Shown: positions 10,598-42,896, numbered from the stretch's first letter. The stretch is 60,850 nucleotides of DNA from Candidatus Thorarchaeota archaeon (GCA_048884965.1 JBHLQH010000021.1:1-60850); one strand, 5' to 3'. Notes: a model not told the origin generated them from the sequence alone. Numbers and translations: made by a program.

Positions 10598-10682
10598 ATT
10601 GTTCACCACTTTTGGTATACACCCATTTCATGTACAATGGATAATATGAATCTCCCGACAGAGTTATTTCAACCAAGGAAGG

Positions 10683-11627: not shown

Positions 11628-11671
11628 AAATAGAGATGGTGGTCCCCATTGCATTATGAGGACCTACAAGA

Positions 11672-26751: not shown

Positions 26752-27339
26752 TCAAACGATGAAACGGATATCAGCGAGTACTGCTTCTAGAAACATGGAT
26801 GCTTCATGCTCATGTTCACTGTCATTCCAATAACTAACAAATTCGCTGAAGATAGAAAGATCTTCCAATATTTCTTGAGCAAGTATAAGCAATTCATTAA
26901 CTAAAATCTCATCTCCCTGACCAATACCTGGGCAAATGGATTGCTTTGCACTTAGTCCGTATGAAATCTCATCATTTTCCTCACGGAATGTGAAGGGAAA
27001 GGACTTACACACCCCAGGACGAGCAGGATGCACCATACAAAGGTCATTCTCTAAGAAGATACATTCGCCAGTAGGATTCTTCTTCAAAGCAATGATGGCA
27101 AGACCTCGCTCTGTCTCAATGCGGGGGATATTCTGCAGTCCCTGAGGAAGAATCATTGCCTTTGTTTGGATGTAGAAATCTACTACCCTAAGCATCTGCT
27201 TCGCATCAAGTCCAAGGGCATGTGCTAGATATGAGATGTCACGCCCAGTCAATGTCACAATCATATCCTTTTGAGAACAACAGGCACCACAACAAATGCA
27301 CTTGAAGTGTGTAGGCAATTTCCCACCCTCGGGTGCCAT
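26752..27339 (-). CDS. YkgJ-family cysteine-cluster protein (CxxCxxCC)
   Basis: FKCICCGACC, CIFL..DLCMVHPARPGVCKSFPF, CPGIG. Confidence 0.85.
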   Translation of the reverse strand: MAPEGGKLPTHFKCICCGACCSQKDMIVTLTGRDISYLAHALGLDAKQMLRVVDFYIQTKAMILPQGLQNIPRIETERGLAIIALKKNPTGECIFLENDLCMVHPARPGVCKSFPFTFREENDEISYGLSAKQSICPGIGQGDEILVNELLILAQEILEDLSIFSEFVSYWNDSEHEHEASMFLEAVLADIRFIV

Positions 27340-27355
27340 TCAGGTGTCCCTCCCA

Positions 27356-28519
27356 TCAGAGATTCTGAAGGAATTCTTTCATGGCAAGCATTCCATTCTT
27401 GATATCGTCATTTGATGTGGAATATGAGAACCTAAGATGATGGTCGTACGAATCTCCAAATGCCTTGCCTGGAACAGAAGTCACACCGGTCTTCTTCAAA
27501 AGCAGCTCAGACAGAGTATTGCTACTAAGTTCGTACTTGCTCATATCAGGGAAGACATAGAAAGCACCCATTGGATTCATGCATTGAATTCCATCAATGT
27601 CACAGAATGTTTTCAGGATCATATCACGCCGTTCTTGGAAGGCTTCCAGCATCATTCGAATTGAGGATTGATCACCCCTGATGGCTTCAACTCCCGCATA
27701 TTGCACAAAGGAGGTGGCACAGGAAGTAGTGTTCTGTTGAATGCGTACCATATTATCAATAGTATCAGGTGACGCTATTGCATAACCTAAGCGCCAACCG
27801 GTCATCGCATATGACTTCGAGAACCCACTAATCACGACGGTTCGTTCCAAAGCAGGATCCACCTCAAGCATGGAGGTCTGCTTAAATCCATCATATACCA
27901 ATTCTTCATAGATTTCATCACTAAATATCAGGAAATTATTATCGCATGCTAGGTCATAGATCAGCTTCATCTGATCTTTTGTCAGTACGCCTCCAGTGGG
28001 ATTATTGGGGCTATTAATGACAATTGCAGATACTTCCTTCCCGATCTTATTCTTGAGAGCTTCCTCATCCAGCATATATCCAGGATTTGTCCGTACATCA
28101 ACTGGTTTTGCGCCAGCATTACGAAGTAGCACTTTATAGGTTGGCCAAGAGGGAGCTAGTACGAGGACATCGTCACCAACATCTATAGTTGATAGAAAAC
28201 CTTGGAACAGAGCCATCTTTGCACCAGGGGTTACGATAACATTCTTCCGGCCATTGATGTGGATATTCCGGCGGGCGTATAGTTCTTGAATGGCATCAAG
28301 TAGCTCTACTACTCCTCGAGCAGATGTATACCTAGTCTTCCCAGCTTTCAATGCAGCAATGGCTGCCTCGGTGATATTTGGGGGCGTTGGAAAGTCAGGT
28401 TCTCCTACTTCGAAGTGATATACCTTCTTTCCTTCCATCTCCATCTTTTTTGCCAAATCGAGAATCTTCAAAGTACCGGAAGCAGGAATAACCTGCATAT
28501 GATGAGAAGTCCAATCCAT
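27356..28519 (-). CDS. PLP-dependent class I/II aminotransferase (aspartate aminotransferase-like)
   Basis: GEPDF, NSPNNPTG, SDEIY, SGFSKSYAMTGWRLGY. Confidence 0.92.
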   Translation of the reverse strand: MDWTSHHMQVIPASGTLKILDLAKKMEMEGKKVYHFEVGEPDFPTPPNITEAAIAALKAGKTRYTSARGVVELLDAIQELYARRNIHINGRKNVIVTPGAKMALFQGFLSTIDVGDDVLVLAPSWPTYKVLLRNAGAKPVDVRTNPGYMLDEEALKNKIGKEVSAIVINSPNNPTGGVLTKDQMKLIYDLACDNNFLIFSDEIYEELVYDGFKQTSMLEVDPALERTVVISGFSKSYAMTGWRLGYAIASPDTIDNMVRIQQNTTSCATSFVQYAGVEAIRGDQSSIRMMLEAFQERRDMILKTFCDIDGIQCMNPMGAFYVFPDMSKYELSSNTLSELLLKKTGVTSVPGKAFGDSYDHHLRFSYSTSNDDIKNGMLAMKEFLQNL

Positions 28520-28606
28520 TCAATCGCCACCTATACTTGACGACTATCCCACATCCCGTGGGGATGTAGTTCCAAAGAGTATGGTAATATATCAATTGTG
28601 GATGGT

Positions 28607-29428
28607 TCAAATTGAACAGAGGTCCACAAGCTGATCTTTTTGATGGTCGGTTCCAAATACCTGAATTCGCTCAGGTAGAGCTTCACCAAGTCCCAGATCA
28701 TAAGCTTTCCGAATATAGTCTATCTTCATTGGATCAAAGCCAAGGATATGAGCACAGTAGGCATCAACTGCGACAGCATCAGTTCCGATGATGATCCCAC
28801 CGACTTGGTGGATTTTGGGATCTGCTCGGTCACCTTCAATCAAATAGGTCAAGTCGATGATATTCAGTTTAGGTTTGAAGAAGGTTAATAGATCAACCAA
28901 TACATCTGAGAGGTGATTATGCCATTTTGCTTTATCCTTCTCAGGCAAGAGGCCAAATAGGTTTTTGATCCCAGCACCAATGCCTATCCGCTCTTGAGGC
29001 TTAACGGTGGCTAAATTGACGAGAAACTCATTCTCTAGTAAAATACATGGCAGCTGTATTGTTTTCAAGAAATGACCGGGCAGTTCACTTGCCTTCAGTG
29101 CTTCCTTGGAGAGGTTGACGACCTTCACACCTTCCTTCACGAAGGCACTATAGTTGCAGCCATTAAATGCTTCCTCAGCAGTCCTGATAGGATTGTCCGA
29201 TTCCACAAGGTATATTGGTGCCACTGCTTTGAAGAATTCCACAACTGCTTTGACCATTCCGAATGAGGTGTTTCCAGGAAGATTCGGATCGTAAATCGAT
29301 GGTTTGATGATAATATTCTTAGTAGAAGGAGAGATGGGAACAGGATTGGGCAACTTTGAGATAGCTGTCCGTAAGGCATCACTTTGGGTCTTTCGAACAG
29401 CCACTGAAACATAGGATGTGAAAGTCAT
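28607..29428 (-). CDS. DUF362-domain protein
   Basis: IIIKPS, VNLATVK, GIKNLFG, GTDAVAVDA. Confidence 0.75.
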   Translation of the reverse strand: MTFTSYVSVAVRKTQSDALRTAISKLPNPVPISPSTKNIIIKPSIYDPNLPGNTSFGMVKAVVEFFKAVAPIYLVESDNPIRTAEEAFNGCNYSAFVKEGVKVVNLSKEALKASELPGHFLKTIQLPCILLENEFLVNLATVKPQERIGIGAGIKNLFGLLPEKDKAKWHNHLSDVLVDLLTFFKPKLNIIDLTYLIEGDRADPKIHQVGGIIIGTDAVAVDAYCAHILGFDPMKIDYIRKAYDLGLGEALPERIQVFGTDHQKDQLVDLCSI

Positions 29429-29436
29429 TGTATTAT

Positions 29437-30381
29437 TTACCCACCGAAGAAGAGCCTACGAGCTCTTCGTCTGCGTTCCTCTTCGCTCTCCTCAGTATCT
29501 GGAGGTGGAGGAGGCGGAGGGGGAGATACAGATTCTATATCCTCATCGTCCTCGATACTCTCTTCATCTTCCAAAGAGCTTGGTGATGGTTCATCCATCG
29601 GACTCCAGACCTTAGCAGGTTTTGAGGTTTCATCATCAGCGGGAGATACTGGTTCCTCAAATGATGAATCATCAATAGGAGGTTCAACTGTTTCTTCCCA
29701 GGAGTATTTGGGGCGTATGACACTAATCTCTTCCTTTACCTCAGCAGGGGGTTCAGGAACATAGACATCTTCGGAAGATTCGAAGGAGTCAAGGTCTTCG
29801 GTATCTTCGATTTCATCAGGGGTCGAATCGATGATTAGGTGGTCGGGTTCGACTAATTCGAAATCGGATGAGAATTCTCTTGCACCACCATCTACATGGG
29901 TGTCATCTTCTACAGATCCTTCCATTATGCCCATTGAGTCTATACTAACAGACCCATCTTCTAGTGCTGGGGCAGGTGTCACTGCTATATCGGGAGAATC
30001 CGAATCAGATTCAATAGTGATTGATACTTCAGCTTCTACTTCGAATCCTTCAGGTTCTAGGACTATATCAGGAGGTGTTGTTTCAAAATCATCTGAGGGC
30101 AGTTCATCATCTTCAATATCTTCTTCTTCAAAGGAATCATCTAGGATAGGACCTTCAAGAATGTCCTCCTCGACATCGGAGTCAAATTTCAATCCAAGTT
30201 CCTTGTGCAAGCAGCTCTCACAGCGTTTTGCGGCGGCAACCAATCCATCGTATATGAAATCTTCCAAGGATTTTGCTCGATCTTTGTTAACCCTTGACCA
30301 CTTCAGGAAGGAATCAACCATTCTTAGAGCGTCTCTAACTCCCATCCAATAGTCATCGGACCTTTTATTATCTGGACTCAT
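29437..30381 (-). CDS. Acidic, largely disordered protein with an N-terminal helical domain, a Pro8 run and a basic C-terminal helix
   Basis: Folded-looking N-terminus (DYWMGVRDALRMVDSFLKW...CESC), long D/E/P/S-rich region, SPPPPPPPPDTEESEEERRRRARRLFFGG end. Confidence 0.8.
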   Translation of the reverse strand: MSPDNKRSDDYWMGVRDALRMVDSFLKWSRVNKDRAKSLEDFIYDGLVAAAKRCESCLHKELGLKFDSDVEEDILEGPILDDSFEEEDIEDDELPSDDFETTPPDIVLEPEGFEVEAEVSITIESDSDSPDIAVTPAPALEDGSVSIDSMGIMEGSVEDDTHVDGGAREFSSDFELVEPDHLIIDSTPDEIEDTEDLDSFESSEDVYVPEPPAEVKEEISVIRPKYSWEETVEPPIDDSSFEEPVSPADDETSKPAKVWSPMDEPSPSSLEDEESIEDDEDIESVSPPPPPPPPDTEESEEERRRRARRLFFGG

Positions 30382-30447
30382 AGTAGGAACCTAGTCTTCG
30401 CTGCTCATGATTCTGAAAAAAGGCTTTCCATCATATGGGTAATACGT

Positions 30448-30972
30448 TCATTCCGATTCTGATTTATTCTTTAGCAGGAGAATCTCATTGTACAATTCAT
30501 CAAAGGTCGTCACAATCTCAAGCCGCTTGAACTTGTCAATCTCAGAATCAATGATTAATACTCGTGTTGGAACGCCACTTCCCAAGTGTTCTCGGATTTC
30601 ATTCCTATATATCGCTTCAATTTCTGGATCCGCATCTGGCATGACTATAACAACAGCATTAGCTCCAGCAAATGTTACAGAAAGAAGCATCTCTAATGCT
30701 GAATGGCGAGGGGACCAGGTCACCGCGCGTACATTTGATTCCTCAGTTTCTATCGCGGCTGTACCAATACGAATACCATCAACAGCAACAGCATTATCAT
30801 TCACAATACTCAATACCTTTTCAAGTAACTTGTCATCAGGACCAACTACGGTTACTTTGAACAAATATCGTTTCTTTGACCTCTTCCCGGCGGTCTTTTT
30901 CTTATCTGATGAAATTGTTAATCTAACCCCCAAAGGCAGGAATGAAAACTGCTTGTTGTCTATGCATCGCAT
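30448..30972 (-). CDS. Rab/Ras-fold small GTPase-like protein lacking G1/G3/G4 motifs
   Basis: YLFKVTVVG, DGIRIG, VRAVTW, FAGANAVVIV align by eye with Rab YLFKVVLIG, IGVEF, IKAQIW, YRGAVGALLV; exact start uncertain. Confidence 0.6.
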   Translation of the reverse strand: MRCIDNKQFSFLPLGVRLTISSDKKKTAGKRSKKRYLFKVTVVGPDDKLLEKVLSIVNDNAVAVDGIRIGTAAIETEESNVRAVTWSPRHSALEMLLSVTFAGANAVVIVMPDADPEIEAIYRNEIREHLGSGVPTRVLIIDSEIDKFKRLEIVTTFDELYNEILLLKNKSESE

Positions 30973-31056
30973 AGGTCCTTTTGTAGATATGTCTTACTAG
31001 CTAGTTCCTTTGATTCATGAAAACTATTAAGATGTCATCTGATTTAGAGAAGAGCG

Positions 31057-31428
31057 ATGAGAGGATATCAAGCGGTAACAATCGTTGGCATAATATTGGT
31101 AGTGGTAGGAGTCCTTATCCTGATTTCAACAGCAGGAGAATCTGAATTCTTCTTCTTTGTATTCCCCTTCTTTTTCTTTGGGAATGCAAGTAGTATAACG
31201 CCAATTTTCACAGGTATAATGATACTCTTCACACTTGTCTGCCTTTTTCAAATTCTAACATTCAAATCCGGCTTTAGCTCATTGTATGAGAATACCAAAG
31301 TGGAACGAAAATGCTCAAAATGTCAAGTTCCATTACCAGAGGGCTTTAACTACTGCCCAATATGTGGAACGCAAAGTATTGACTCTGACCAGCGGAATTG
31401 GTCCTACGATCAAGAGGATATTGAGTGA
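31057..31428 (+). CDS. Small membrane protein with a C-terminal zinc ribbon
   Basis: TM segments (FFFFVFPFFFFG), then CSKC...YCPICG. Confidence 0.75.
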   Translation: MRGYQAVTIVGIILVVVGVLILISTAGESEFFFFVFPFFFFGNASSITPIFTGIMILFTLVCLFQILTFKSGFSSLYENTKVERKCSKCQVPLPEGFNYCPICGTQSIDSDQRNWSYDQEDIE

Positions 31429-31429
31429 T

Positions 31430-31891
31430 ATGATAACAATCAGGTCTGTTGCTCTAAGGGATCTAGGGGAGATAATCAGAATTGAAGAAGAGTGCTTCCC
31501 AAATCCATGGCCAAAATCTACCTTCCTTATGTTGGCAATACGAGGAGGATCAATGGAAGATAAAGCTGGATATGTTACTATGGTTGTTTGTCAGTACAAT
31601 GATAGAATAGTTGGCTATGCGGTCTGGGAATACGAGAAGAAAACTCGAGCAGGTCATCTGCTCAATATCGCAGTGACGAGGGAATGCCAAAGACATGGAC
31701 TTGGATCACTAATGGCAAATTATGTATTAACCAATCTAAGGGAATCAAGTGCCAAAGGGTGCCGTTTAGAGGTCAGAGAGAGTAACCACACAGCAAGGAG
31801 CTTGTATGAGAAGCTTGGTATGCACTCTGTTGGAAGGTCCCCTAACTATTATGAAACAGAGGACGCACTCATCTATGAAATAGCCTTTTGA
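31430..31891 (+). CDS. rimI: RimI/Ard1-like N-terminal protein acetyltransferase
   Basis: IEEECFPNPW, HLLNIAV...QRHGLG, LEVRESN..ARSLYEKLG, YYETEDA; ATG at 31430 is in frame with ORF 31286-31891. Confidence 0.88.
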   Translation: MITIRSVALRDLGEIIRIEEECFPNPWPKSTFLMLAIRGGSMEDKAGYVTMVVCQYNDRIVGYAVWEYEKKTRAGHLLNIAVTRECQRHGLGSLMANYVLTNLRESSAKGCRLEVRESNHTARSLYEKLGMHSVGRSPNYYETEDALIYEIAF

Positions 31892-31892
31892 G

Positions 31893-34800
31893 CTACTTGA
31901 TCGCATCTGCAATGAGTTTTGGACCGAGTACATTCTTGTAAAGCCGGAGGTAGGATTCATCTCTTGATAGAATACATATAGGGGTATCCTCATTCGTTTG
32001 CCCACCAATCAATATCTCCTTGTCATCAGCTACTGCAAGTAGACTTGGAGTAGGAAGCTCCCAGATACGCCAACCCTTCAGAGTTTCAAGTTCAGGATCC
32101 TTATCCTCACTTTGAGGGATGATCAGGACTCTTCTTATCGGCGTTTTCACCTTAGCAAGCTTCTTGAGATCTAGACAATCAAGATGAGGAAGTGAAATCA
32201 CAATTGATGATTCAGCACGTGTTGACATGTCTTGAATCTGAGCACACACCTCCTCAGTGCCAGAGAGATACCAAGTTGTGGATGATGGAAGAGACCTAAC
32301 CTCTTCAGTTGCTTCCTGTATAGCAGATAGCATACCAGCTATATTCCTAGCTCCTTCCATCGCAGATGAATTTGCATCCTGTACTGATGTACTGAGCTTC
32401 ATAGTACTCTCAAGCGCGTTCTCAGACCATTCATTGAGAGATTCATTGGTTTCGCCTGAAGCTGATTTTAGCAATTCCGTTCGAGAACTCTGGAGCTTGA
32501 TGATTGCAGCAGAGATCTCACCAGAACCTGTTTTTTGAACCTCCTGAATCTGAGAGGTCGAATCATTTACTTGTGAGGACAATCCCTCAACAATCTCATA
32601 TGAAGCACTACTGAGTGCGGCCTTCATTTCTACGCCAACTGATTCGAATTTCCTCGCCGCATGCTGATTCGAAATCAATGCAGCCTGTTGAATCTGCTCA
32701 ATAGCACCATCTTGTGCCTGAGACATTTGTGCCTCAAGCTTGGAGATGAAGGTACTCATTTCATCACAGGTGGTCTTTGCGGAGGTTTCAAGGTCCAATA
32801 TACGTTGGTCTGTTTCTTCCTTGGTAGTAGCTAATCTTGCTTTGCTTTCTGTCAAAACAGTCTTTGAAACTAGGTCTGTATCCTTCAGTACTTTGTCTGG
32901 AAACTCAGACATGGAATCTATTGCTCCATTCAAGGATGTTTCACTTGTGGTTGCAAATTCATTTGCTGTTGTTCGCATTAGAGTTTCAGAGTGTTGTAGG
33001 AAGGATAGACCTACCTCCTCAAGCTGAGATATTTGGGTCTGGGATCGTTCTCTCAATCCGGTTAAAGCAACCTCAGAGGATTTACTTAGGGTTTGTTGAG
33101 CATGTATGACATCGTTGCTCATTTTGGAACCTAATGTTTCCAATGAAGCGGCCACATTGTCCATAGCTGAATCGATCCATACTGATGCCGCATCGAATGC
33201 AACAACCGTTTCAGCTCTTCTGTCCTCCATTGCAGCCATCAATTCATTGCGAGCTTTAGACCTTCCTGTTGAAGCTCCAGATTGGGTTGCTTCCAAGCTG
33301 GCATAGAATTCCTCAACCTTCTCAGTGGTTTTCTTGATATTTGCTGTCGCCAGCGTATCAAGCTTCTTACTGGTTTCCCCAAGAATCCGTTGCATTGACT
33401 CCATTTCTTCAGATAGGTAGGTGTCAACAGTATTTTTGACATTTACAGTATTCTTTGCTAGGATATCTGCTGTTTCTATTGTAATGGATTTCAGTCGCTC
33501 AGTGACATTATCTCTGGCACCTGCTACAGATACACCAAATTCACGAGATAGCTGTTGAACATTGTCTGCAAACTGCTTTACTGTACCAGTTTCTATCTCA
33601 AGAAGGCTCTCCTGTGCACTAGCCAAGGATGCTTCAATCGACGATATAGCATCCTCCATACTCTTCGAAATCTCTGTTTTCTTATCAGCAGTAAATTCAT
33701 TCAAGCTCCTCTTCAAAGCAGCTGTGGATTCTACCACAGAGTCGATGCGCATACCTATTTCAGAAGCAAACTCCTGTTGAAGCTTAATCGAATCGCTGTC
33801 AAGAGAATCCATCTCTGATTTCACAACGGTTTTGAACTCTGTATGCGCAGAAGCGATCAAATCTCGTGCTTCTACTGATTGGCTTGCTATTAGACCATTG
33901 AATGATGATTCCATGCTTTGGGTTACAGAAATGAATTGCTGAGTCATCTCTTCTATTCGTGTATGAAAGTCATTACGCATTTCTTCAGCATGTCGATCAA
34001 TTCTCGCAACCTGCTCTGTAATGCTAACATCAATCTCCTTCTGTGCACGAGTGACCTGTGAGCCTAGAGTATTCATGCTCTCAGCCAATCTACTATTTAG
34101 TCGTTGATTCAAACCCTCATAAAGCGTCTTGGCTTCATTGACCTGTTGTTGCACAGCAGTAATATGTTGTGATGATATATCAGTTAGTTTTGACTCCAAA
34201 CTGCTTTCGTATTCACTAGCAATTCGCCGAATGGATGATAAAGCAGCATCGTTCTTGGTTTCAGTTGTGGATATCACTCCAGAAAAGGATGATTTCAAGC
34301 GACTTGTGATGTTATCAGCAAGGGAATTCAGTTCAGCAGCTTCAGTATCCAAGACAGTAGATATCTCCTTGACTGCTGAATTGACTTTCTTATCAATTGC
34401 TTTCGAAGCCTTATCGCCCCATGAGACAATATTTTCTTGCAGGTTGTCATTTGTCAATTGAAGTCGTTCTTTATTTCCAGAAACCTCATTCTGTAGTAGC
34501 TCGATAATGGATGTTCGAGCTTCACTCATCAAGGTGTCAGTATCGGCAGTAAGAGTACGGGCGAGATTCCGAACTGCTTTGTATTCTTCGCCAATTGAAG
34601 CATTCATCTTGTCAATATGCCCAGAGAGCGAACTACGAACAATTTCGAGAAATGCTTTTTCAGAAGCATTAAGTTGTTCGAGTTGAGCAAGAACAGATTG
34701 CGAAGCAGTTTCCATATAGTTCGCAACCTCCTCTTTCCATTGATCGATATTTTCCGTAAAGGATGTGGTTAGACCTAGTATATCGTCGAATCTCTTCTGC

Positions 34801-35786
34801 ATATTCTCAGATTGCGATTCAGCATTTTGCTGTGCTTCTTGTGATGTTTCGTTTAGTGTTTTTCTGGAGGCAGTGAGGTTCTGTCCAAAGAGAAACTCGA
34901 AGTTGGCGGTTTTTAGCTTCAGAGCTTCTGATAGATTGGTCAACATCTCTGAAACAGCGTTTGAAGATTCTAGGGCTTTTGCTCCTAATATCGATGAGAT
35001 TTGCTCGGTGCTTTCTTGCAGCGCTTTTTCGGAGCTTTTGAGGGCTGCCTCTAGTACCTTCTTTGCACCTGCAACCAGTTTGTTTGACTTTTCGTCTACC
35101 TCCTTGATAGAGGACAACGACGCGGATTTTTCTTGAGTTAGCCACTTCGCGAATTCCTTTGATAATTTCTTGACATCAGCAGTAAGCTGCTTCTGACTTT
35201 TATCCAATTCATCCTGCAACAGAGTGAGTTTCTGTCCAATTTGATCTTCAAGGGATAAATTCAGCGAGTCAAGAGTGGTTTGCGTTCTTTGCGAATAATC
35301 ATTGAGAATTCCCGAGGTAAGTGCGGTCATGGCAGATATGTGAGTCTGTACGATATCGGCGACTTCCTTCTCATACACATCATATGCACCATTCAGCTTG
35401 TTATACCGAGACTCATTAGCCTTGGTTATAGTTCCAAGGGTTTTCTCGGTTGATTTTTGTAATTTCTGAACAGTAGATGTCGTTTCGCCTCCAATTTTCT
35501 CGGATTCGTCTATGAACCCTTCAATGACCTTAATCATTGGTAGGATTGGTGGTGTTGCTCTGTACAAAGGTACAACACTATCAATCTCTTCAACTAGCCC
35601 CTTCGTTACTAATGTCTTGAGAGGTTTAGATACACTAGTTAGAGGTTGATCAACTACCATTGATATTGCACCAGCAGTAAGATTACCACCGCGTATTAAC
35701 GGAAGCAGTATTGTCGCCTCATCCTTTGTAAGCGACAGAGTTTCTGCTAACTTTGGAATTGCTCTTATTTTCCCGCTTTTACTCAC
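31893..35786 (-). CDS. 1297-aa protein: TrmB-like wHTH, about 1050-aa alpha-helical rod, TrmB/PLD-fold C-terminal domain
   Basis: LSLTKDEATILLPL..GNLTAGAIS...LKTLVTKGLVE....PLYRATPP; TWYLSGTEEVCAQIQDMSTRAESSIVISLP...AVADDKEILIG. Confidence 0.75.
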   Translation of the reverse strand: MSKSGKIRAIPKLAETLSLTKDEATILLPLIRGGNLTAGAISMVVDQPLTSVSKPLKTLVTKGLVEEIDSVVPLYRATPPILPMIKVIEGFIDESEKIGGETTSTVQKLQKSTEKTLGTITKANESRYNKLNGAYDVYEKEVADIVQTHISAMTALTSGILNDYSQRTQTTLDSLNLSLEDQIGQKLTLLQDELDKSQKQLTADVKKLSKEFAKWLTQEKSASLSSIKEVDEKSNKLVAGAKKVLEAALKSSEKALQESTEQISSILGAKALESSNAVSEMLTNLSEALKLKTANFEFLFGQNLTASRKTLNETSQEAQQNAESQSENMQKRFDDILGLTTSFTENIDQWKEEVANYMETASQSVLAQLEQLNASEKAFLEIVRSSLSGHIDKMNASIGEEYKAVRNLARTLTADTDTLMSEARTSIIELLQNEVSGNKERLQLTNDNLQENIVSWGDKASKAIDKKVNSAVKEISTVLDTEAAELNSLADNITSRLKSSFSGVISTTETKNDAALSSIRRIASEYESSLESKLTDISSQHITAVQQQVNEAKTLYEGLNQRLNSRLAESMNTLGSQVTRAQKEIDVSITEQVARIDRHAEEMRNDFHTRIEEMTQQFISVTQSMESSFNGLIASQSVEARDLIASAHTEFKTVVKSEMDSLDSDSIKLQQEFASEIGMRIDSVVESTAALKRSLNEFTADKKTEISKSMEDAISSIEASLASAQESLLEIETGTVKQFADNVQQLSREFGVSVAGARDNVTERLKSITIETADILAKNTVNVKNTVDTYLSEEMESMQRILGETSKKLDTLATANIKKTTEKVEEFYASLEATQSGASTGRSKARNELMAAMEDRRAETVVAFDAASVWIDSAMDNVAASLETLGSKMSNDVIHAQQTLSKSSEVALTGLRERSQTQISQLEEVGLSFLQHSETLMRTTANEFATTSETSLNGAIDSMSEFPDKVLKDTDLVSKTVLTESKARLATTKEETDQRILDLETSAKTTCDEMSTFISKLEAQMSQAQDGAIEQIQQAALISNQHAARKFESVGVEMKAALSSASYEIVEGLSSQVNDSTSQIQEVQKTGSGEISAAIIKLQSSRTELLKSASGETNESLNEWSENALESTMKLSTSVQDANSSAMEGARNIAGMLSAIQEATEEVRSLPSSTTWYLSGTEEVCAQIQDMSTRAESSIVISLPHLDCLDLKKLAKVKTPIRRVLIIPQSEDKDPELETLKGWRIWELPTPSLLAVADDKEILIGGQTNEDTPICILSRDESYLRLYKNVLGPKLIADAIK

Positions 35787-35828
35787 TTTTATCCCGCCGA
35801 TATTATTTACTAACTCAAGATGTTGGTA

Positions 35829-36629
35829 TCAAGAACTAATCCTTTTCACAGAATTGAACAACTCCTGTAATTCGCTAACCAAGAGTGGATTGTTCTTTGA
35901 GTCTGAGATTATTTCAAGAATAAGTTCCGATGAGCCTTTGCTTGCTACGAACTCATGATTTGCAATAGTTGATGGAATACTATCAAGAAGCTCCTTAATT
36001 TTGTCAGATTCAGGGTTACCTTTGATTGAAAAACGAATCTCCCACCAGTTCGAAGTAATCGTTTTGACTTCAACAGGTACATTCATGAACTGGGAATAGA
36101 CCTCAGCATATTGATGAACTAAATCAAAACGCGTCAGCTGTTCATTTTCAGGATTAATGATTACAATACCTCTTGTGAAATCGAAATGGAAGACCAACTT
36201 GTCACCTGCTACAATCATCTGATCCTTACTATTTACCGCCACATAGTTTTTCCATTCTGTCTTGAACTTGGTATTGAAATGACGAATCGAGCTTACCTTC
36301 AAGGTTGCCATTAGATCCTTGATAGGCAATCTCCGATCGTTCATTCCTCTTCCCTTTCCTTCAAGGATATATCTCCTGAGTTGATCCATATAGACCGAGT
36401 AGCAGAATTCAGGAAGGTCCTGAGTTTCAACACCAAGCTCAATAAGGGTGTTGAGGAAGTTCCTATTCTTGCACGCTGGGCGAACTGTGCAGCTAAGTCG
36501 ATCTTCTTGACAGGCACGACATTTTGTCTCATGTAGTTCCATTAATTCTCTGGCCAGTTGTCGGTCTGAGGGATAATCGAGGAATTCAACTCTCTTTGCC
36601 ATTTCATCATCGTGCTTCTTTAGCTCCAT
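35829..36629 (-). CDS. Uncharacterised protein with an N-terminal Cys cluster
   Basis: HETKCRACQEDRLSCTVRPAC...PEFCY. Confidence 0.75.
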   Translation of the reverse strand: MELKKHDDEMAKRVEFLDYPSDRQLARELMELHETKCRACQEDRLSCTVRPACKNRNFLNTLIELGVETQDLPEFCYSVYMDQLRRYILEGKGRGMNDRRLPIKDLMATLKVSSIRHFNTKFKTEWKNYVAVNSKDQMIVAGDKLVFHFDFTRGIVIINPENEQLTRFDLVHQYAEVYSQFMNVPVEVKTITSNWWEIRFSIKGNPESDKIKELLDSIPSTIANHEFVASKGSSELILEIISDSKNNPLLVSELQELFNSVKRISS

Positions 36630-36795
36630 TTCAGTATCAACTCACAAGATATAATATGCATGAAACCATCAGGTAGGAGAATATCCCATTATCTAGGAAT
36701 ATTCAAGGTTCTCATTACAGGCTCTGCAATTGAACGAGATAAATCTATTCAACACGCATCTATGATTTCGACCTTTTTCAGACGTCGAAGTGAAC

Positions 36796-37884
36796 TTAGG
36801 TTTCGGTAGTGATCTTCTTGAGCTTGGAAGTCCAATCACGAATTTCCTTGTTTAGTCGTGCGATATCATTCTCGTTCAATGTCGCAGTAGGTGGATATGC
36901 TTTGAGTTCTCGTGCTCGGGTTCCAAATTGGAATAGAACTGGAGTGTGTCCCTTAATCAACAATGTAAGTTTGTCACGAACCTCCTCCAATGCTTTTGCC
37001 ATATCCTTAGCTTCTGTTTGAGGCTTTACCTTCGCGAGAAGGCTATTCATTAGGTTATCAATTGTTGAAGCATCAGCCTTTATTGTCAGCTCTTCATCAG
37101 GCTCGTCCCTCTTCTCACCTTTCTTTGGCTTCTCTCTGTCTGATTTTGGAGAGGCTATCTCAATATAGCCGCCATTTGATAATGACTTTACCACTTCCAT
37201 AGCTTCACTAATATCCTCAATCGCCTTGTTGTATTTGCGCTCGATATCGTCCAATTGTCTGACAATGATACCAACAATCTCTTTTGTTTCTGAGAATGCT
37301 GAGGACATCACGTCGACCTTTTCCTCAAGTGCTGAAAGTCCAGCTACATACTGTTGAAGGTCATCAATCTTCTTACCAAGAACCTCCGTACTATCTGAAT
37401 CTCTCAGTTGCACAATATTCGTAGCGATTTCGGAAAGAGAAGTAGAGAATGTCTGTATCCTTTCATCAAGAGAACCAATGTTTTCCGACTGATTGGAATC
37501 GTCTACCTTGGAGCCAATTTCAGTCACTGAGAGTAACAGATCATCTATCTTCTTGTAAAGTACATCCATTTCTTTTGAGGATTGGACTTCAGCAATATCG
37601 TCCGTGACTTTCTCGACTTTTGATGTAAGTTCATCGAGTTTAGAGGAAAGACTGTCGAAATCTTTCTCATCTACGGCCTTGGCGAGTGCCTCTAGTTTCT
37701 TGTCATCTTCGACCTTTTCTTTTATTGATTCGACTTCCTTCGTTAGAGAATCAATCTTTTTCATCAGGTCAGGAAAATCATCAAGGGGTTCAATGCGCTT
37801 ATTGATTTTGTCAAGTTCTTGCGCCAGTCCTTCTACTTTCTTCTCCAAATTCTTCACATTTCCTTCAGCATTATCGGAAGACAT
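36796..37884 (-). CDS. Coiled-coil protein with a C-terminal four-helix domain
   Basis: About 235 aa of heptad-like KKIDDL/KVE repeats, a charged linker and a ~90-aa helical C-domain. Confidence 0.8.
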   Translation of the reverse strand: MSSDNAEGNVKNLEKKVEGLAQELDKINKRIEPLDDFPDLMKKIDSLTKEVESIKEKVEDDKKLEALAKAVDEKDFDSLSSKLDELTSKVEKVTDDIAEVQSSKEMDVLYKKIDDLLLSVTEIGSKVDDSNQSENIGSLDERIQTFSTSLSEIATNIVQLRDSDSTEVLGKKIDDLQQYVAGLSALEEKVDVMSSAFSETKEIVGIIVRQLDDIERKYNKAIEDISEAMEVVKSLSNGGYIEIASPKSDREKPKKGEKRDEPDEELTIKADASTIDNLMNSLLAKVKPQTEAKDMAKALEEVRDKLTLLIKGHTPVLFQFGTRARELKAYPPTATLNENDIARLNKEIRDWTSKLKKITTET

Positions 37885-37983
37885 GTGCTCCCCTACTTGG
37901 CGTGTTTCTGCAAATAGAGAAGTATCGCATGTTTTTAGCCTTTCGGAGATGTAGATATTTTGAAAGAATTGAGTTTCAAGACC

Positions 37984-38823
37984 CTAGAGGTCCTTTGCCC
38001 GAATTGATTCGATGTTCAGGCTATCTAGAATGGGCAGTAGATGTTCTCGCTGTTCCATGTTTGTACCTTTCCAATCTATGACAGCTCTTTTCACTTGTGC
38101 TTGGGAACGAGAGATCATCTGTCGTATAACGGATTCAGGGATTTCGTTAAGTGCATACTTTGGAGCAATATGTCCTATCTGAAGATCGTTTTCAAGAACC
38201 AACTTGTTGAACTTGGAAACATAGTGGGTCCCACCGAATCCAATATCGCACTCTCTACCAAATGGTTCCTTAGTGCACTGGATTGCCGCAGCAGCAACTG
38301 CTCTCGCACCATCCTCGTGAGTCCAGTATGTTTCATTACTACCCAATTCTACAAAGACCAAGGGAGTATTCATACTAGTGGGACCATGATGAGTTGCTTC
38401 CATGGTGACATCGAATTCAACCAACTCTCTTTCGTCTCGCTCCTTTTGCAAACATTTGAGTGCAGCAGAAGCTAGCGAAGAGGAGCAGATGGACAGAGAG
38501 AAAGGGTCACCACCAAATAAAGCATCAGGGCCCAGATTGCCGGTGCTATGTACAAGTAAAGCGGGTTGTCCAGATTCAGCTCTGTGTCGAGAACAGAAGA
38601 TATACACATCAGCAGGAACCTCATCTTCAAGATGATTCGATTGAACCATATCACGGGATGAAGTAATTAGCTTGACTCTATCATCATTTACAAGAATCGG
38701 ATGTCCATCGAAGGTCTCTCCATTCTCTCTAAAATCATAATCTTGGATGAGTACTTGTTTAATGGTTAGACTAGCAGGATCGCGAATTGAAGTAACGAGA
38801 ACTCGCAAAGTGATGAACCTCAA
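37984..38823 (-). CDS. dtdA: D-aminoacyl-tRNA deacylase, archaeal DTD2 type
   Basis: SIRDPAS, FCSRHRAES, LLVHSTGN, EATHHGPT, FVELGS, GFGGTHY, GHIAPKY. Confidence 0.92.
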   Translation of the reverse strand: MRFITLRVLVTSIRDPASLTIKQVLIQDYDFRENGETFDGHPILVNDDRVKLITSSRDMVQSNHLEDEVPADVYIFCSRHRAESGQPALLVHSTGNLGPDALFGGDPFSLSICSSSLASAALKCLQKERDERELVEFDVTMEATHHGPTSMNTPLVFVELGSNETYWTHEDGARAVAAAAIQCTKEPFGRECDIGFGGTHYVSKFNKLVLENDLQIGHIAPKYALNEIPESVIRQMISRSQAQVKRAVIDWKGTNMEQREHLLPILDSLNIESIRAKDL

Positions 38824-40064
38824 TTCTGCTCAATCTTGCATTTCTCTAGTAGGGGAATTAGTTTTAGTTCTTCGACTTCGATGCCAATCTTCTCATCGAA
38901 CGCCTGATTGATTTCTGTTTCAACTCTGGTCTTGAAATCCTCGAATTTCTCAATTTCACGTCGGATATCATCACCAACTCGAAGCAAATCATTCCTGTGA
39001 TATTCATAATTCTTCTTTGCTTCCTCCAACGCAGTTTCCAGGCTTTTGTTCTTGGCGTACACATCTGAGCCAGCATATTGAGTCCGCTTATTGTCAATAT
39101 CCTTAGCTTTCATCTGAAGATCCCTGAGCGAGCCATTCTTGATAATCTCAATCTCCTCAATAGACCGACGTGCAAGACGGTCTTTTAGCTTCAATGAACC
39201 AGATTCTATCGCCTTCACAAGTCCGTCCAGTCCCTCTACAAGAGCAGGATATCCTTCGGGTTCTTGTACGATAGCTGCAAAGGGATCTTCGAAATATTCC
39301 GCTAAAGCCTTCTGCCCAGATGGTCCTATCCGGACGCCGGTATCAGTTTGACCAAATTTCTTCACAGTCTTTCGAAGAGTGTTTAGCTTCATTCGAAGCA
39401 GACCTGCTATTCGCTCTGATTCCTCATCCAAGTTGAGTAGCTCTGACACATTGGACTCCTTCTTGAAGCTCTCAAACACATCTCGCTTCTGGTTGTATTC
39501 ACCTTGAGCTTGCTCAATCTTCATTCTGATGGTTCGTATCTGTTCCTCGTATACTTCTGTGCCATAGGTAATCTCTCGCATGGTTGTGATGCGACCACCG
39601 ATACGCTCCAGATCCTTTAACCAGCTGTATTCGTAGAGGAGTTTGGACAACTTCTTCATCTCATTACCGAGGTCGCCCATATGTCGATCCAAAGATTTGA
39701 TTGTGTCCTTGTATTTCTTATCCATGCGCCTAATCCATCGAGCCCCTGCACCCCAAATCTCTTGGATGAAATATTGAATCTCTCCTTGCATCGCCTCAGT
39801 ACTTTCGTAGGTGATGTCCTTCTTGACATCAAAATTCGCTACAATCTCATCGATTTTATTGGCGAACCTAGTGGCAGTGCCTTCTGCTTCTGCATCACTT
39901 TCTTTGCTGGCTTCCTTAAGCTCTGCACCCACTGCCTTGATGTCTCTAAGAGAAGCCTCAACGATTCTATAGCTCTTCTCTGCCAGCTTGCGAAAATCCT
40001 TACTCTTGTCACTAAGTTTTTTCCGATACCATTTCTCTAGTTCAGGGATTGATAGCGTTCTCAT
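38820..40064 (-). CDS. Long all-alpha/coiled-coil protein
   Basis: Helical and charged throughout, no NTPase motifs; probable start MRTLS at 40064; stop overlaps the dtdA start. Confidence 0.75.
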   Translation of the reverse strand: MRTLSIPELEKWYRKKLSDKSKDFRKLAEKSYRIVEASLRDIKAVGAELKEASKESDAEAEGTATRFANKIDEIVANFDVKKDITYESTEAMQGEIQYFIQEIWGAGARWIRRMDKKYKDTIKSLDRHMGDLGNEMKKLSKLLYEYSWLKDLERIGGRITTMREITYGTEVYEEQIRTIRMKIEQAQGEYNQKRDVFESFKKESNVSELLNLDEESERIAGLLRMKLNTLRKTVKKFGQTDTGVRIGPSGQKALAEYFEDPFAAIVQEPEGYPALVEGLDGLVKAIESGSLKLKDRLARRSIEEIEIIKNGSLRDLQMKAKDIDNKRTQYAGSDVYAKNKSLETALEEAKKNYEYHRNDLLRVGDDIRREIEKFEDFKTRVETEINQAFDEKIGIEVEELKLIPLLEKCKIEQN

Positions 40065-40224: not shown

Positions 40225-41025
40225 ATGTCAGAGGTCTTAGAAACCGGTAACCGGAAACCGAGACTCGATGCTGCCTATTCCCTTGAATGTGCTTCTTGAG
40301 GACAAGGTCGCAACGGACTCTTCATCAAAAGATTGAGCTTGATTGATCCCAAAGGCCATGATAGACTGTTGCTACGGAATCCAGCGAACTATAAAGCAGG
40401 ATTCTGGACAACATTCGTCTATGATAGTCAACCTCATGCCATCAGTTCCACGGAACCGATGAATAGGATGAATGTCACTTCAGAAACAGGGATTGGAACT
40501 GTGAAGATCTCAGCGGGATACAATCACCATGGTTGTAAACCACTGATTGAATTGACAGATAGTCTCTGGAGCAAGAACAAGCCAATGCTCTTCTGGCGTC
40601 ACAGTATAAAGAATACTGGGCGCATGGCCTTTGAGGATGTCAAAGCATATCTCTTGATGGACTTTGATATCGGAGGACCCAACAGCTACAAGGATGATAG
40701 TGGTCAGTATGACCCTGAAAAGGGAATTATGACTGTCTGGGATGAGAATCATCTCTTTGTACAACTAACGGGAAATCCAAAACCATCCGCTGGAGAGGTA
40801 TCAACGCCTGTCAAGTTGGTCATTGATGAAACCCGACGCGACCTAGGAAAACACCTCGAGATGGGTCCACGAGACATCGTAATCGGACTACAATGGAATC
40901 TTGGGAATATCGACCTTGGTGAAATAGCTACAGTCGATGTTGCCCTTGTTTCGGCAGTGAGCCTCGATGAGGTGAGAGACCTCACGCAAGACGCGTGGAG
41001 CCTCTTCGACAGGAAAATGCGATGA
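40225..41025 (+). CDS. Beta-rich protein with an in-frame TGA at codon 25 (C-A-S-UGA); candidate selenoprotein
   Basis: ATG 40225 is in frame with the 40333-41025 ORF; the only interruption is TGA at 40297-40299; TTTATAT box about 42 nt upstream of the ATG. Confidence 0.6.
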
Positions 41026-41131
41026 CATGAACACTGGAAATAAATGATGCTCATAGAGCTCAGGGAAGCACCCTGTTTCCTGTCGTACACCTCAGAATAC
41101 AGCAAGACGAAGTGACCCGCCTCGATTCTGC

Positions 41132-41458
41132 TCATCTAATATCTTCAAGATACTCGACAAGCATCAATGCTTCCTCCGTGAAGTGAGCAGGTTCACCTCT
41201 GTTGTTGATATCTCCACCAACTAGGAAACCCATTGCTACCAAGGAACGTAGATTCCATTTCACCGTACTATATGCAACTCCGGACTTTCGAGAGACCAGA
41301 TCAGCTAGTGTCGTAAGGGAAACCTCACGGTATCGCAGTGTATTTACACTATGCACTAACACTGATTTCTGAGTGGGATTCATCTTTGATTCAGCTAGCT
41401 TCAGAAATACAGAAGCTAGACTTCTAAAAGAAGATCCATAGGGAGTTTGTTCACACAT
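41132..41458 (-). CDS. Winged-helix DNA-binding protein
   Basis: MNPTQKSVL...SLTTLADLVSRKSGVAYSTVKWNLRSLVAMGFL..G; start moved to MCEQ because the upstream sequence is occupied by a small ORF. Confidence 0.75.
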   Translation of the reverse strand: MCEQTPYGSSFRSLASVFLKLAESKMNPTQKSVLVHSVNTLRYREVSLTTLADLVSRKSGVAYSTVKWNLRSLVAMGFLVGGDINNRGEPAHFTEEALMLVEYLEDIR

Positions 41459-41468
41459 CGGGCAGGTC

Positions 41469-41573
41469 TTAGACCCATCTGAGAACACAATCACCTTGTC
41501 TGGTAATTTCGCACTCACCTGGACATTTGACCCGACATCGATGGGCATCTGATGCAGTTGCTTCTATACCCAT
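41469..41573 (-). CDS. 34-aa Cys-rich microprotein
   Basis: GAGGTGA RBS, then MGIEATASDAHRCRVKCPGECEITRQGDCVLRWV*; ends 10 nt before the wHTH ATG. Confidence 0.55.
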   Translation of the reverse strand: MGIEATASDAHRCRVKCPGECEITRQGDCVLRWV

Positions 41574-41660
41574 TTCTTTTTTCACCTCTTTTTACATAGG
41601 GTCGACCAAATAGATTGCGAGTTTGTACTTAAATTTTCGCAGTAACGCTCAATTGCAGAT

Positions 41661-42155
41661 TTATAGAAAATCATCAGGCATCTCTAATCCTAATGATTGC
41701 AGCTTTCCAAAACCTTTGGAATACAGGCTCATGTGATGGCGAATGTCTTCCTCAATTAAAGCCAGTGATTCAAGAGACACAATGATGCCGTCCAAACCTT
41801 CAGACCTGTAATCATCTAGCATTGAACTAAGTGTGTCGCTCATCTGAAGCATCAGATCTTGAATGGTAACATTGAGATCAATCATCGAACGAACCGTTTC
41901 TGTTGCAGGGCCATGAGGCATGTAGGGTAGAAAATCTTCCAACGCAACACCAGCTTCACGACACTTATCCACACGCCCAGGGATGATCTCATCAACCATA
42001 TTGTGCAGCCATCCTAGACGTTCTTGATGAGTCAGGCTCTGGAGACCATCCATTGAGAAATATCCAGTCCATGGCATGAACTCTGTGCCTTCATAGGAAA
42101 TCCATTCATCAAAGGCAGATAATACACGACGCCATCCCTCTTCAGTTTCGGACAT
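41661..42155 (-). CDS. Hypothetical helical protein
   Basis: Probable start MSETEEGW after GGTTGA; acidic helical composition. Confidence 0.7.
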   Translation of the reverse strand: MSETEEGWRRVLSAFDEWISYEGTEFMPWTGYFSMDGLQSLTHQERLGWLHNMVDEIIPGRVDKCREAGVALEDFLPYMPHGPATETVRSMIDLNVTIQDLMLQMSDTLSSMLDDYRSEGLDGIIVSLESLALIEEDIRHHMSLYSKGFGKLQSLGLEMPDDFL

Positions 42156-42221
42156 TTCCATCAACCTAGCGGATAGTCGGCATCGAAGGTTATAAAGTAA
42201 CGTGAGCTTTTCTGATATAGG

Positions 42222-42896
42222 ATGACTGGTCGAATTCAAGAACTAGTAGAGATTCTCAAATTATCGAAAGAGTCCGAACATACTGAGCTCCCAGATTCTC
42301 TACAAGAACTGTTAACGAATTTCGGATACAATAACACATCAGAGATAAATCGGGAGATGCGGATTGAGATCGCATTGGAAGCGATTTCGAGAGGATGCGA
42401 AGCAGAGATAGTCATCCAGCAGTTGACATGGAAGGACTTCGAAGGATTTGTCGCTAGAGTCCTTCAAGAGAATGATTATCACTGTACAGAGAGTTACAGG
42501 AGAAGAGGCAATAAACTAGTTGAAGGAATGGAAATCGATGTTATCGGAGTTAAAGGAAGATCAATTCTGGCAATTGATGCCAAGATGTGGGGAATTAGGT
42601 CAGGTAAGACATCCGCTATTAAAGAAGCTATTAAGAAGCAAGTGATTCGCACTGAGAGGCTAAGTCACGACCTGGAAAAACTGAGTAAGAAGATTCCAGC
42701 AATGTCCCCAGGAATCTATACTCTCATACCTATAATGGCGACATGGTTGGTAGAAGATGTTCAGATTCATGAGGGAGTGCCAGTCATACCGATATTCAAA
42801 CTAAACGCATTTCTCCTCGACCTTGCGAGATTTGAGGATTTTCTAATATCCTTTGAAGGGAACTTGAACAGGCAAATGCAGCAGTCGAAACTATAG
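42222..42896 (+). CDS. PD-(D/E)xK nuclease, Mrr/NERD-like
   Basis: LTWKDFEGFVARVL...MEIDVIG....LAIDAKMW. Confidence 0.75.
   Translation: MTGRIQELVEILKLSKESEHTELPDSLQELLTNFGYNNTSEINREMRIEIALEAISRGCEAEIVIQQLTWKDFEGFVARVLQENDYHCTESYRRRGNKLVEGMEIDVIGVKGRSILAIDAKMWGIRSGKTSAIKEAIKKQVIRTERLSHDLEKLSKKIPAMSPGIYTLIPIMATWLVEDVQIHEGVPVIPIFKLNAFLLDLARFEDFLISFEGNLNRQMQQSKL

Follow-up and report, generated by a model that had tools for sequence, protein, structure and literature searches.

A conserved two-gene unit for a 1,297-residue TrmB-headed rod and a four-cysteine protein within a Thorarchaeia-specific gene neighborhood

Among known prokaryotes, Asgard archaea are most closely related to eukaryotes, and the organization of their DNA and cytoplasm is largely unknown. 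We analyzed a 10.6-kb run of nine genes (positions 29437 to 40064, labeled A to I in order of position) in a window of 60,850 nucleotides (nt) from Candidatus Thorarchaeota archaeon (GCA_048884965.1 JBHLQH010000021.1:1-60850), which an earlier note had put forward as a candidate membrane-remodeling or cytoskeletal locus. We consider it fairly probable that the run is instead a neighborhood specific to Thorarchaeia, made up of one old unit, the gene pair F-E, and of functionally independent genes. E encodes a 1,297-amino-acid (aa) protein with a TrmB-type winged helix-turn-helix (wHTH) head on a long helical rod, and F encodes a protein with four conserved cysteines. The earlier suggestion of an undescribed structural system stands for these two genes and is largely unsupported for the set of seven. 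What is new here is the phylum-wide pairing of F with E, the conservation of the midpoint of E, the reduction of the rest of the locus to order-level synteny, and the confirmation of B as a pseudo-GTPase. The literature that we searched on giant TrmB rods, hendecad TrmBL2 proteins, and Asgard pseudo-GTPases held no description of these proteins.

The F-E pair and the rod of E

In each of the 20 Thorarchaeal loci, the gene directly upstream of E is F, and the two share a strand. The same adjacency, with a full-length E-type gene, was found in 13 loci of eight further families (f3; f7, Jordarchaeales; f8, Baldrarchaeia; f15; f17; f19; f20, Njordarchaeales; and f21), which together with f1 and f2 makes 10 Asgard families, with gaps of -14 to +112 nt between the two genes. 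Near F in 18 genomes of other families, E alone recurs among the genes of the cluster. Judged from these sequence comparisons, F-E is an old two-gene unit that has been kept across at least five Asgard classes. In an alignment of 29 F orthologs, Cys37, Cys40, and Cys76 are invariant and Cys53 is nearly so, and because of these four conserved cysteines F is probably a zinc protein. No Pfam family was found for F, a profile search returned only Thorarchaeal "hypothetical proteins" among the 120 matches listed, and no second F-like gene was found in the genome of the window (G000).

Both ends of E point to the TrmB family, the C-terminal one less firmly. The head matches PF01978 with 31.0 bits (cut-off, 25.6; E value, 2.3e-7). 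The C-terminal end matches PF11495 with 15.8 bits, under the cut-off of 22.2 and over profile positions 3 to 98 of 233 only, and this family was matched in 7 of 22 E orthologs, with a best E value of 7.5e-6. In single-sequence searches of the PDB, neither the E head nor the C-domain retrieved a TrmB or TrmBL2 entry. Compact TrmB proteins have about 250 to 350 aa and carry a short dimerization helix of a few dozen residues between their two domains. E shares with TrmB and TrmBL2 the wHTH, the order of parts (head, pairing helix, putative C-domain), and probably the first effector subdomain, but its pairing helix extends over about 1,080 hendecad residues, which at 1,297 aa puts E outside the compact size class. 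A partner gene like F is not known for TrmB proteins.

The length of the rod is held with little variation. Its hydrophobic period was 3.65 to 3.70 in all seven windows of 140 residues, with no power at 3.5, and there is a single proline in the about 1,080 residues from 84 to 1166. Among 20 Thorarchaeaceae orthologs that are 24 to 59% identical, the only indel in the rod is one residue in one sequence, and the whole protein measures 1,293 to 1,310 aa in Thorarchaeia, f19, and Jordarchaeales, at identities down to 20%. Along E, the peaks of conservation are the head, the C-domain, and, topmost, residues 630 to 651. The latter is the best-conserved 22-residue window of the protein, with a mean column identity of 0.72 versus 0.68 for the best window in the wHTH, and the geometric midpoint of the rod, (83 + 1167)/2, falls at residue 625. 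We regard residues 630 to 651 as a candidate fold-back apex or docking site.

We propose that E is most likely a fold-back strut of fixed length that is anchored on DNA. The short pairing helix of a TrmB or TrmBL2 ancestor would have grown to a hendecad helix of about 1,080 residues and of strictly fixed length, and a dimer of E would bind DNA through its wHTH heads. Given the conserved midpoint and the fixed length, the two halves of the rod would have to match and fold back at the apex, near residue 630, which would reunite the N- and C-terminal domains as in an ordinary TrmB protein. At roughly 0.15 nm per residue, such a strut would measure about 80 nm when folded and about 160 nm when unfolded. 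It could space or bridge DNA segments or tie DNA to another structure, and F, presumably made from the same transcript, could be the partner of E, serving at the head as a cofactor or cap or at the apex as an adaptor.

TrmBL2 corresponds to TK0471/PF0496, and the TrmB relatives are sugar regulators of Thermococcales. TrmBL2 has been described as an abundant chromatin protein of Thermococcales and as a roadblock to SMC (PMC3031468, PMC4877046, PMC11840125). Because the fixed-length rod of E carries a TrmB head and TrmBL2 is a chromatin protein, the comparison argues for DNA organization and not membrane remodeling; by this analogy, the F-E pair points to chromatin over membrane or cytoskeleton. 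Should the pair prove to be a strut or tether of chromatin, it would constitute a nucleoid-organizing device for which we found no description in the literature searched. The pair makes a testable object, a putative two-gene operon for a predicted DNA-binding rod, the length of which is constant within about 1% at 20% identity, plus a Cys-rich partner.

The arms of SMC, Rad50, and MukB also keep a fixed length in divergent orthologs and have a conserved element at their midpoint, and the end domains of E would likewise meet upon fold-back. E differs from them in having no ATPase head, no Walker motifs, and no family match above noise, and in its hendecad rather than heptad repeat. No ATPase family was found in E with Pfam or NCBIfam; in place of an SMC or Rad50 head, its ends are the wHTH and the TrmB-like C-domain.

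The 11/3 period of the rod recalls a different class of helix. The Pfam Apolipoprotein family (PF01442) matched seven stretches of it with an E value of 1e-16, and the E profile matched ApoA-IV and ApoA-I at E values of 7e-14 to 1e-8, which would accord with E being an apolipoprotein-like binder of lipid surfaces that tethers the nucleoid to the membrane through its DNA-binding head; its amphipathic 11-mer helices would then rest on the membrane or another lipid surface. We give this idea little credence. The Pfam score of 61.5 bits lies under the 90-bit cut-off, and exchangeable apolipoproteins consist of proline-punctuated 22-mers, whereas the E rod has one proline. The absence of indels and the conserved midpoint are better fitted by paired halves than by a helix bound to a surface. 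Common periodicity and composition suffice for the similarity, and we have read it in that way rather than as homology.

A second alternative would make F-E an ordinary transcription-factor pair. E would then be a TrmB regulator whose long helix serves only for spacing or sensing, with F as its redox- or metal-sensing co-regulator. A regulatory function is established for TrmB proteins (PMC4158304), E shows TrmB membership at its head and, less firmly, at its C-terminal end, and the conserved four-Cys site of F can be counted on the same side. However, a simple regulator would have little need of a 1,080-residue linker that lacks indels and keeps its length across classes at 20% identity, and of the sugar-binding module, the C-domain of E would retain just the first subdomain. 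No conserved target genes were found beside the pair at the loci examined. An ordinary regulator thus seems improbable to us, and we keep to a strut anchored on DNA as the most likely form of E.

Several points weigh against the strut and against F-E as a unit that stands apart from its neighbors. The fold-back is read solely from the conserved midpoint and the fixed length. The role of F as a partner of E is a guess; F has no recognizable fold, and its Atlas model, with a predicted local distance difference test score (pLDDT) of 0.48, is too poor for use. F and E-like genes lie apart in f12 (Hermodarchaeia), f9 (Lokiarchaeota), f16, f18, f22, and f24, and TrmB-rod paralogs of other lengths exist in these families. 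In Thorarchaeia, I, dtdA, G, F, and E are co-directional and tightly spaced, with I and dtdA overlapping, so that co-transcription and a lineage-specific shared role of these five genes are conceivable.

The genome of the window also contains a paralog of E on contig C10 (88844-91861, plus strand), a 1,006-aa protein with a proline-free run of 714 residues. Its C-domain matches E with an E value of 4.6e-6, and the gene adjoins an open reading frame (ORF) of 2,196 aa (C10:81095-87682, minus strand). In Jordarchaeales and f19, a conserved gene for a 339- to 473-aa protein with a weak DUF4139 match occurs just upstream of F. It was found at L061 (6864-7892), L062, L063, L070, and L079, where it is near E and no F was detected. 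A NIL-ferredoxin gene with two 4Fe-4S motifs (L061:6268-6669) stands just before the DUF4139-like gene in three Jordarchaeal loci, and similar ferredoxin genes are also present in F loci of the Hermod and Loki types.

Synteny and distribution of the neighborhood

Reading of ORFs and domain searches confirmed that the seven odd, nonenzymatic proteins that had been described from the sequence are present where they had been placed (Table 1). The 1,297-aa wHTH rod, the four-Cys protein, and the acidic Pro8 protein were each verified, and the genes lie mostly on one strand, as had been said: seven of the nine (I, dtdA, G, F, E, B, and A) are on the minus strand, and the two plus-strand genes, C and rimI, are convergent with E. 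The statement that only DtdA and RimI have enzymatic motifs also holds, given that Pfam and NCBIfam returned no other enzymatic families among the proteins of the region. No tRNA genes, Rfam matches, or tandem repeats were found in the region. The gaps between minus-strand neighbors are 99 nt (dtdA-G), 166 nt (G-F), 42 nt (F-E), and 66 nt (B-A); A is separated from the downstream DUF362 gene by 8 nt, and the TGA stop of I overlaps the TTG start of dtdA (TTGA).

Table 1. Genes of the region and the protein segments discussed in the text
Feature	Positions	Strand	Basis
A, 314 aa, acidic and disordered-looking, with a helical CxxC N-domain of about 70 to 100 aa	29437-30381	minus	
A, residues 287-314, conserved tail: Pro8, then DTEESEEERRRRARRLFFGG	29440-29523	minus	ortholog alignment
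B, pseudo-GTPase, small-GTPase fold	30448-30972	minus	predicted fold, hhalign
C, small protein with a membrane segment and, at its C-terminus, a zinc ribbon; its gene immediately precedes rimI	31057-31428	plus	PF13240
D, RimI-type GNAT N-acetyltransferase	about 31430-31891	plus	TIGR01575
E, TrmB-family protein, 1,297 aa: wHTH head, hendecad rod, truncated TrmB-like C-domain	31893-35786	minus	
E, residues about 1167-1297, alpha/beta C-domain, a probable relative of the TrmB effector domain in its first half	31896-32288	minus	PF11495
E, residues about 85-1165, helical rod, 11/3 hydrophobic period	32292-35534	minus	
E, residues 630-651, NGLIASQSVEARDLIASAHTEF, rod-midpoint segment	33834-33899	minus	column identity
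E, residues 16-80, TrmB-type wHTH	35547-35741	minus	PF01978
F, 266-aa four-Cys protein, C-terminal half alpha/beta-like	35829-36629	minus	ortholog alignment
G, 362-aa coiled-coil protein	36796-37884	minus	21-ortholog alignment
H, DtdA, D-aminoacyl-tRNA deacylase (housekeeping)	37984-38823	minus	PF04414
I, 414 aa (from the Met common to orthologs), all-helical, pan-archaeal family with no known function	38820-40064	minus	

Synteny was examined in stretches of about 20 kb that surround the E ortholog, taken from 19 further Thorarchaeaceae genomes, the family of the window, and from 1 genome of a second family of the order. The order of the cluster genes is identical in all 19. In the second family (L040), I-dtdA-G-F-E and rimI are kept, B is inverted, and A and the DUF362 gene were not found in the locus. 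The colinear block spans 26.7 to 43.9 kb, at least 17 kb, and crosses both borders of the region. On one side (26752 to 29428) it takes in the genes for a CxxCxxCC protein, for a class I/II aminotransferase, and for DUF362; the opposite flank (40225 to 43925) comprises a candidate selenoprotein gene (40.2 to 41.0 kb) and four genes without Pfam matches, the last at 42891 to 43925. A carbonic-anhydrase-like gene is also among the unrelated flanking genes, and colinearity across Thorarchaeaceae is no less strict in the flanks than in the cluster. Because the block runs into unrelated metabolic genes, its conservation reflects general colinearity and is not evidence of a shared function.

Outside the Thorarchaeal order, the cluster dissolves. 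With family hidden Markov models, we searched the surroundings of I, about 20 kb in each of 20 genomes that belong to 14 other Asgard families, and found no dtdA, G, or F there. One partial E-like gene lay 6 kb off, and there were two weak B-like matches, one of which is a bona fide Ras-family GTPase according to Pfam. The distributions of the components, counted over 151 Asgard genomes, are discordant. I occurs as a single-copy, full-length gene in 88 of the 151, also in families without F (for example, f4, f5, f6, and f13); F occurs in 111, also in families without I (for example, f7, f8, f17, f20, and f22). Clear B orthologs are confined to f1, f2, and f16 (weaker matches are ordinary GTPases), full-length G to f1 and f2, and the N-domain of A to f1, f6, and f12 (Hermodarchaeia).

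The earlier note had proposed to judge its system by gene order and by co-occurrence. Gene order is kept within Thorarchaeia but extends into unrelated flanks and is lost outside the order, and the distributions are discordant for every pair except F-E. We therefore read I, DtdA, G, RimI, C, B, and A as adjacent by descent within Thorarchaeia and not by a shared job. Synteny within one archaeal order, as this case cautions, is no proof of shared function.

One may still picture a scaffold of the seven nonenzymatic proteins that is confined to Thorarchaeia and in which the rods E, G, and I are organized by B and A and possibly linked to actin and profilin or to the endosomal sorting complexes required for transport (ESCRT). 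The order and orientation of the genes, kept in 19 Thorarchaeaceae genomes and largely in the second family, speak for it, as do the tight spacing with the overlap of I and dtdA, the conservation of B as a pseudo-GTPase, and the clear selection on the Pro8 and basic tail of A. Rod genes are also enriched at the locus, although only modestly. A proline-free run of at least 200 aa as a proxy, which is crude and was chosen post hoc, marks 30 of the 3,019 ORFs of the genome as rod-like, with E, G, and I among them within 8.2 kb; label shuffling placed at least three rod-like ORFs inside 10.6 kb in 4.6% of trials (P of about 0.05), which is mildly unusual for the genome. Against the scaffold, identical synteny spans the aminotransferase, DUF362, selenoprotein, and carbonic-anhydrase-like flanks, the housekeeping genes dtdA and rimI are interleaved, and the 8-nt gap makes A as tightly linked to DUF362 as to B. 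The second family has B inverted and A missing, every component has its own distribution, the ESCRT-III genes are on other contigs, and the sole profilin-like match is weak and unlinked. We consider such a scaffold unlikely.

The proposal of a membrane-remodeling or cytoskeletal system was likewise largely not borne out: ESCRT-III genes lie elsewhere, the identity of G as Vps28 is unconfirmed, and the head of E is of a DNA-binding type, while actin and FtsZ were not searched for. A combined reading, in which F-E is an Asgard-wide, two-component nucleoid organizer, with E as the fixed-length fold-back strut on DNA and F as a zinc-protein adaptor, and in which G, B, and A are its Thorarchaeal partners that couple chromatin to profilin and actin or to another scaffold, has in our estimate only a slim chance of being right. 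If it were true, the F-E locus with G, B, and A would be an early instance of chromatin and scaffold being linked in a eukaryote-like manner. An F-E unit among functionally independent genes remains the reading that we favor.

The pseudo-GTPase B and the acidic protein A

The description of B as a Rab-fold protein without nucleotide motifs was upheld by Foldseek and hhalign. The B model (pLDDT of 77, with a poorly modeled switch region) matched Rab8, Rab21, Rab11, Rab5, and MglA in Foldseek at E values of 9e-5 to 2e-3 and a probability of 1.0, and hhalign aligned B with Asgard Ras-like GTPases at an E value of 2.3e-5, with a four-residue gap in the P-loop. B is like the Ras-superfamily GTPases (Rab, Ras, and MglA) in predicted fold and sequence kinship and unlike them in G1, G3, and G4. 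Its G1 reads VVGPDDKLLE in place of vGxxxVGKTs and does not fit the pattern GxxxxGK[ST]; the WDxxGQ of G3 has become (M/W)SPxH; and the gNKxD of G4 is replaced by a stretch without N or K. These changes are common to all 19 orthologs, so that the loss of the motifs appears ancient and selected and not a matter of gene decay. Going by sequence and the predicted fold, B is a genuine, long-standing pseudo-GTPase, and it would represent one that was anciently fixed in an Asgard lineage; eukaryotic pseudo-GTPases such as CENP-M form its comparison class. The true start of B is probably downstream of the ATG at 30972.

Tandem pairs of B-type pseudo-GTPases occur in f16, with E values of about 1e-27 to the B profile (G063:C6:352486-353599, G043:C21:1780-2886, and G078:C52:80052-81160), and none of the pairs is linked to the F gene of its genome.

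A is 31% Asp plus Glu and has one Pro8 tract and the C-terminal sequence RRRRARRLFFGG. Its acidic middle of 200 aa varies freely, while its tail hardly changes in sequence between Thorarchaeal genera (L021 to L039). Among 18 sequences (A of the window and 17 Thorarchaeal orthologs), the unbroken proline run is 7 to 9 residues long in 14 and 4 to 5 in 2; one of the remaining two has an interrupted tract, and the other has no tail. The proline runs in these 16 of 18 sequences are each followed by EE(E/D)ER(R/K)RRARRLFFG or a close variant, and EEERRRRARRLFFG or a close variant follows the acidic stretch. The tail looks like a short linear docking motif. A search of the genome for profilin gave a single weak match on another contig (C35:31202-31432; E value of 0.33).

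G, I, and the remaining genes

G has a variable coiled-coil N-terminal half, an invariant central helix (residues 172 to 225), and a helical C-domain that spans about 90 aa (residues 270 to 358) and is conserved. Over residues 259 to 362, the Atlas model of G has eukaryotic Vps28 clusters among its neighbors, which recalls the C-terminal four-helix bundle of this ESCRT-I subunit. The agreement is weak, with template modeling (TM) scores of 0.28 and 0.41 and a model pLDDT of 0.60. PF03997 (VPS28) did not match G at E values up to 0.1, its single match genome-wide is unrelated (E value of 0.087), and no Vps28 was found in the PDB with the G profile. Canonical Asgard ESCRT-I genes are linked to ESCRT-II, ESCRT-III, or Vps4 genes. 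The Snf7-family genes, in contrast, are on other contigs or hundreds of kilobases from genes with a G-type C-domain (G000, G028, G030, G037, and G060). Weak relatives of the G C-domain, of 170 to 240 aa, occur elsewhere in Asgard archaea, none of them beside F-E or ESCRT-III genes, and a weak paralog in the same genome (C14, 186 aa) sits amid DHH, NUDIX, and Ras genes and not ESCRT genes. With low TM scores, no PF03997 or PDB match, and no ESCRT linkage, the identity of G as Vps28 is unconfirmed.

The remaining genes of the run have plainer assignments. H matches PF04414 with 210.9 bits (cut-off, 33.6; E value, 1.9e-62) and NCBIfam PRK03995.1-4 with 239.9 bits, which is under the equivalog cut-off of 272. 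D matches TIGR01575 with 89.3 bits, over the equivalog cut-off of 86.4. C matches PF13240 with an E value of 2e-5 and 24.6 bits, just under the cut-off of 25, and its N-terminal half is hydrophobic in translation.

The start of I at 40064 agrees with the start common to its orthologs, and its AlphaFold2 model (pLDDT of 90.8) consists of 15 helices, the longest of 55 aa. The I profile found members in 1,774 representative clusters, some of them from Hadarchaeota, Altiarchaeales, and Methylarchaceae; with members beyond Asgard archaea, I is thus a pan-archaeal protein and not specific to the cluster. It had no Pfam match and no significant relative in the PDB by sequence or structure. The top two Foldseek matches, 8qfc_C and 8ohd_B, come from UFL1 E3-ribosome complexes (E values of 0.17 to 0.18, TM scores of 0.21 to 0.25, and root mean square deviation of about 22 Å). 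From their chain length, we take both to be CDK5RAP3 (C53), a member of the UFM1 E3 ligase complex, and the alignments with the I model are nearly full length. UFL1 and DDRGK1, and not C53, have been reported from Asgard archaea by Picchianti et al. (PMC10183829). Sequence support for CDK5RAP3 was absent in Pfam and in the PDB profile search, which gave coiled-coil noise, and none of 41 members of the I family had a CDK5RAP3-family Pfam match among the matches listed. With weak Foldseek matches and a family that extends beyond Asgard archaea, we have rejected this identity as evidence and keep it as a lead only. A sub-threshold Pfam VPS28 match in 4 of the 41 members (best E value of 0.0023) is probably helical noise.

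The genes beside I differ between lineages. dtdA adjoins it only in Thorarchaeia, and a gene for a TRM5/TYW2 tRNA methyltransferase adjoins it in 10 of 20 non-Thorarchaeal loci, from four families (L041, at 10574-11671, L045, L046, L048, L052 to L055, L059, and L060), with the pair being convergent in L041. Both neighbors act on tRNA, perhaps a hint that the function of I is related to translation. Ras-family GTPase genes near I in eight distant loci were considered as a linkage to B and set aside, given that Asgard archaea have many such genes and that the BLAST cluster lumps paralogs. In several loci of f5 and f13, the surroundings of I include a weak first-longin-domain gene (Fuz/MON1/HPS1, E value of 2e-4; L045:6721-7647, minus strand), a DUF7121 coiled coil (L045:12524-13429, plus strand), and a bona fide Ras-family GTPase (L041:14449-14970, minus strand), which may form a small trafficking-like neighborhood.

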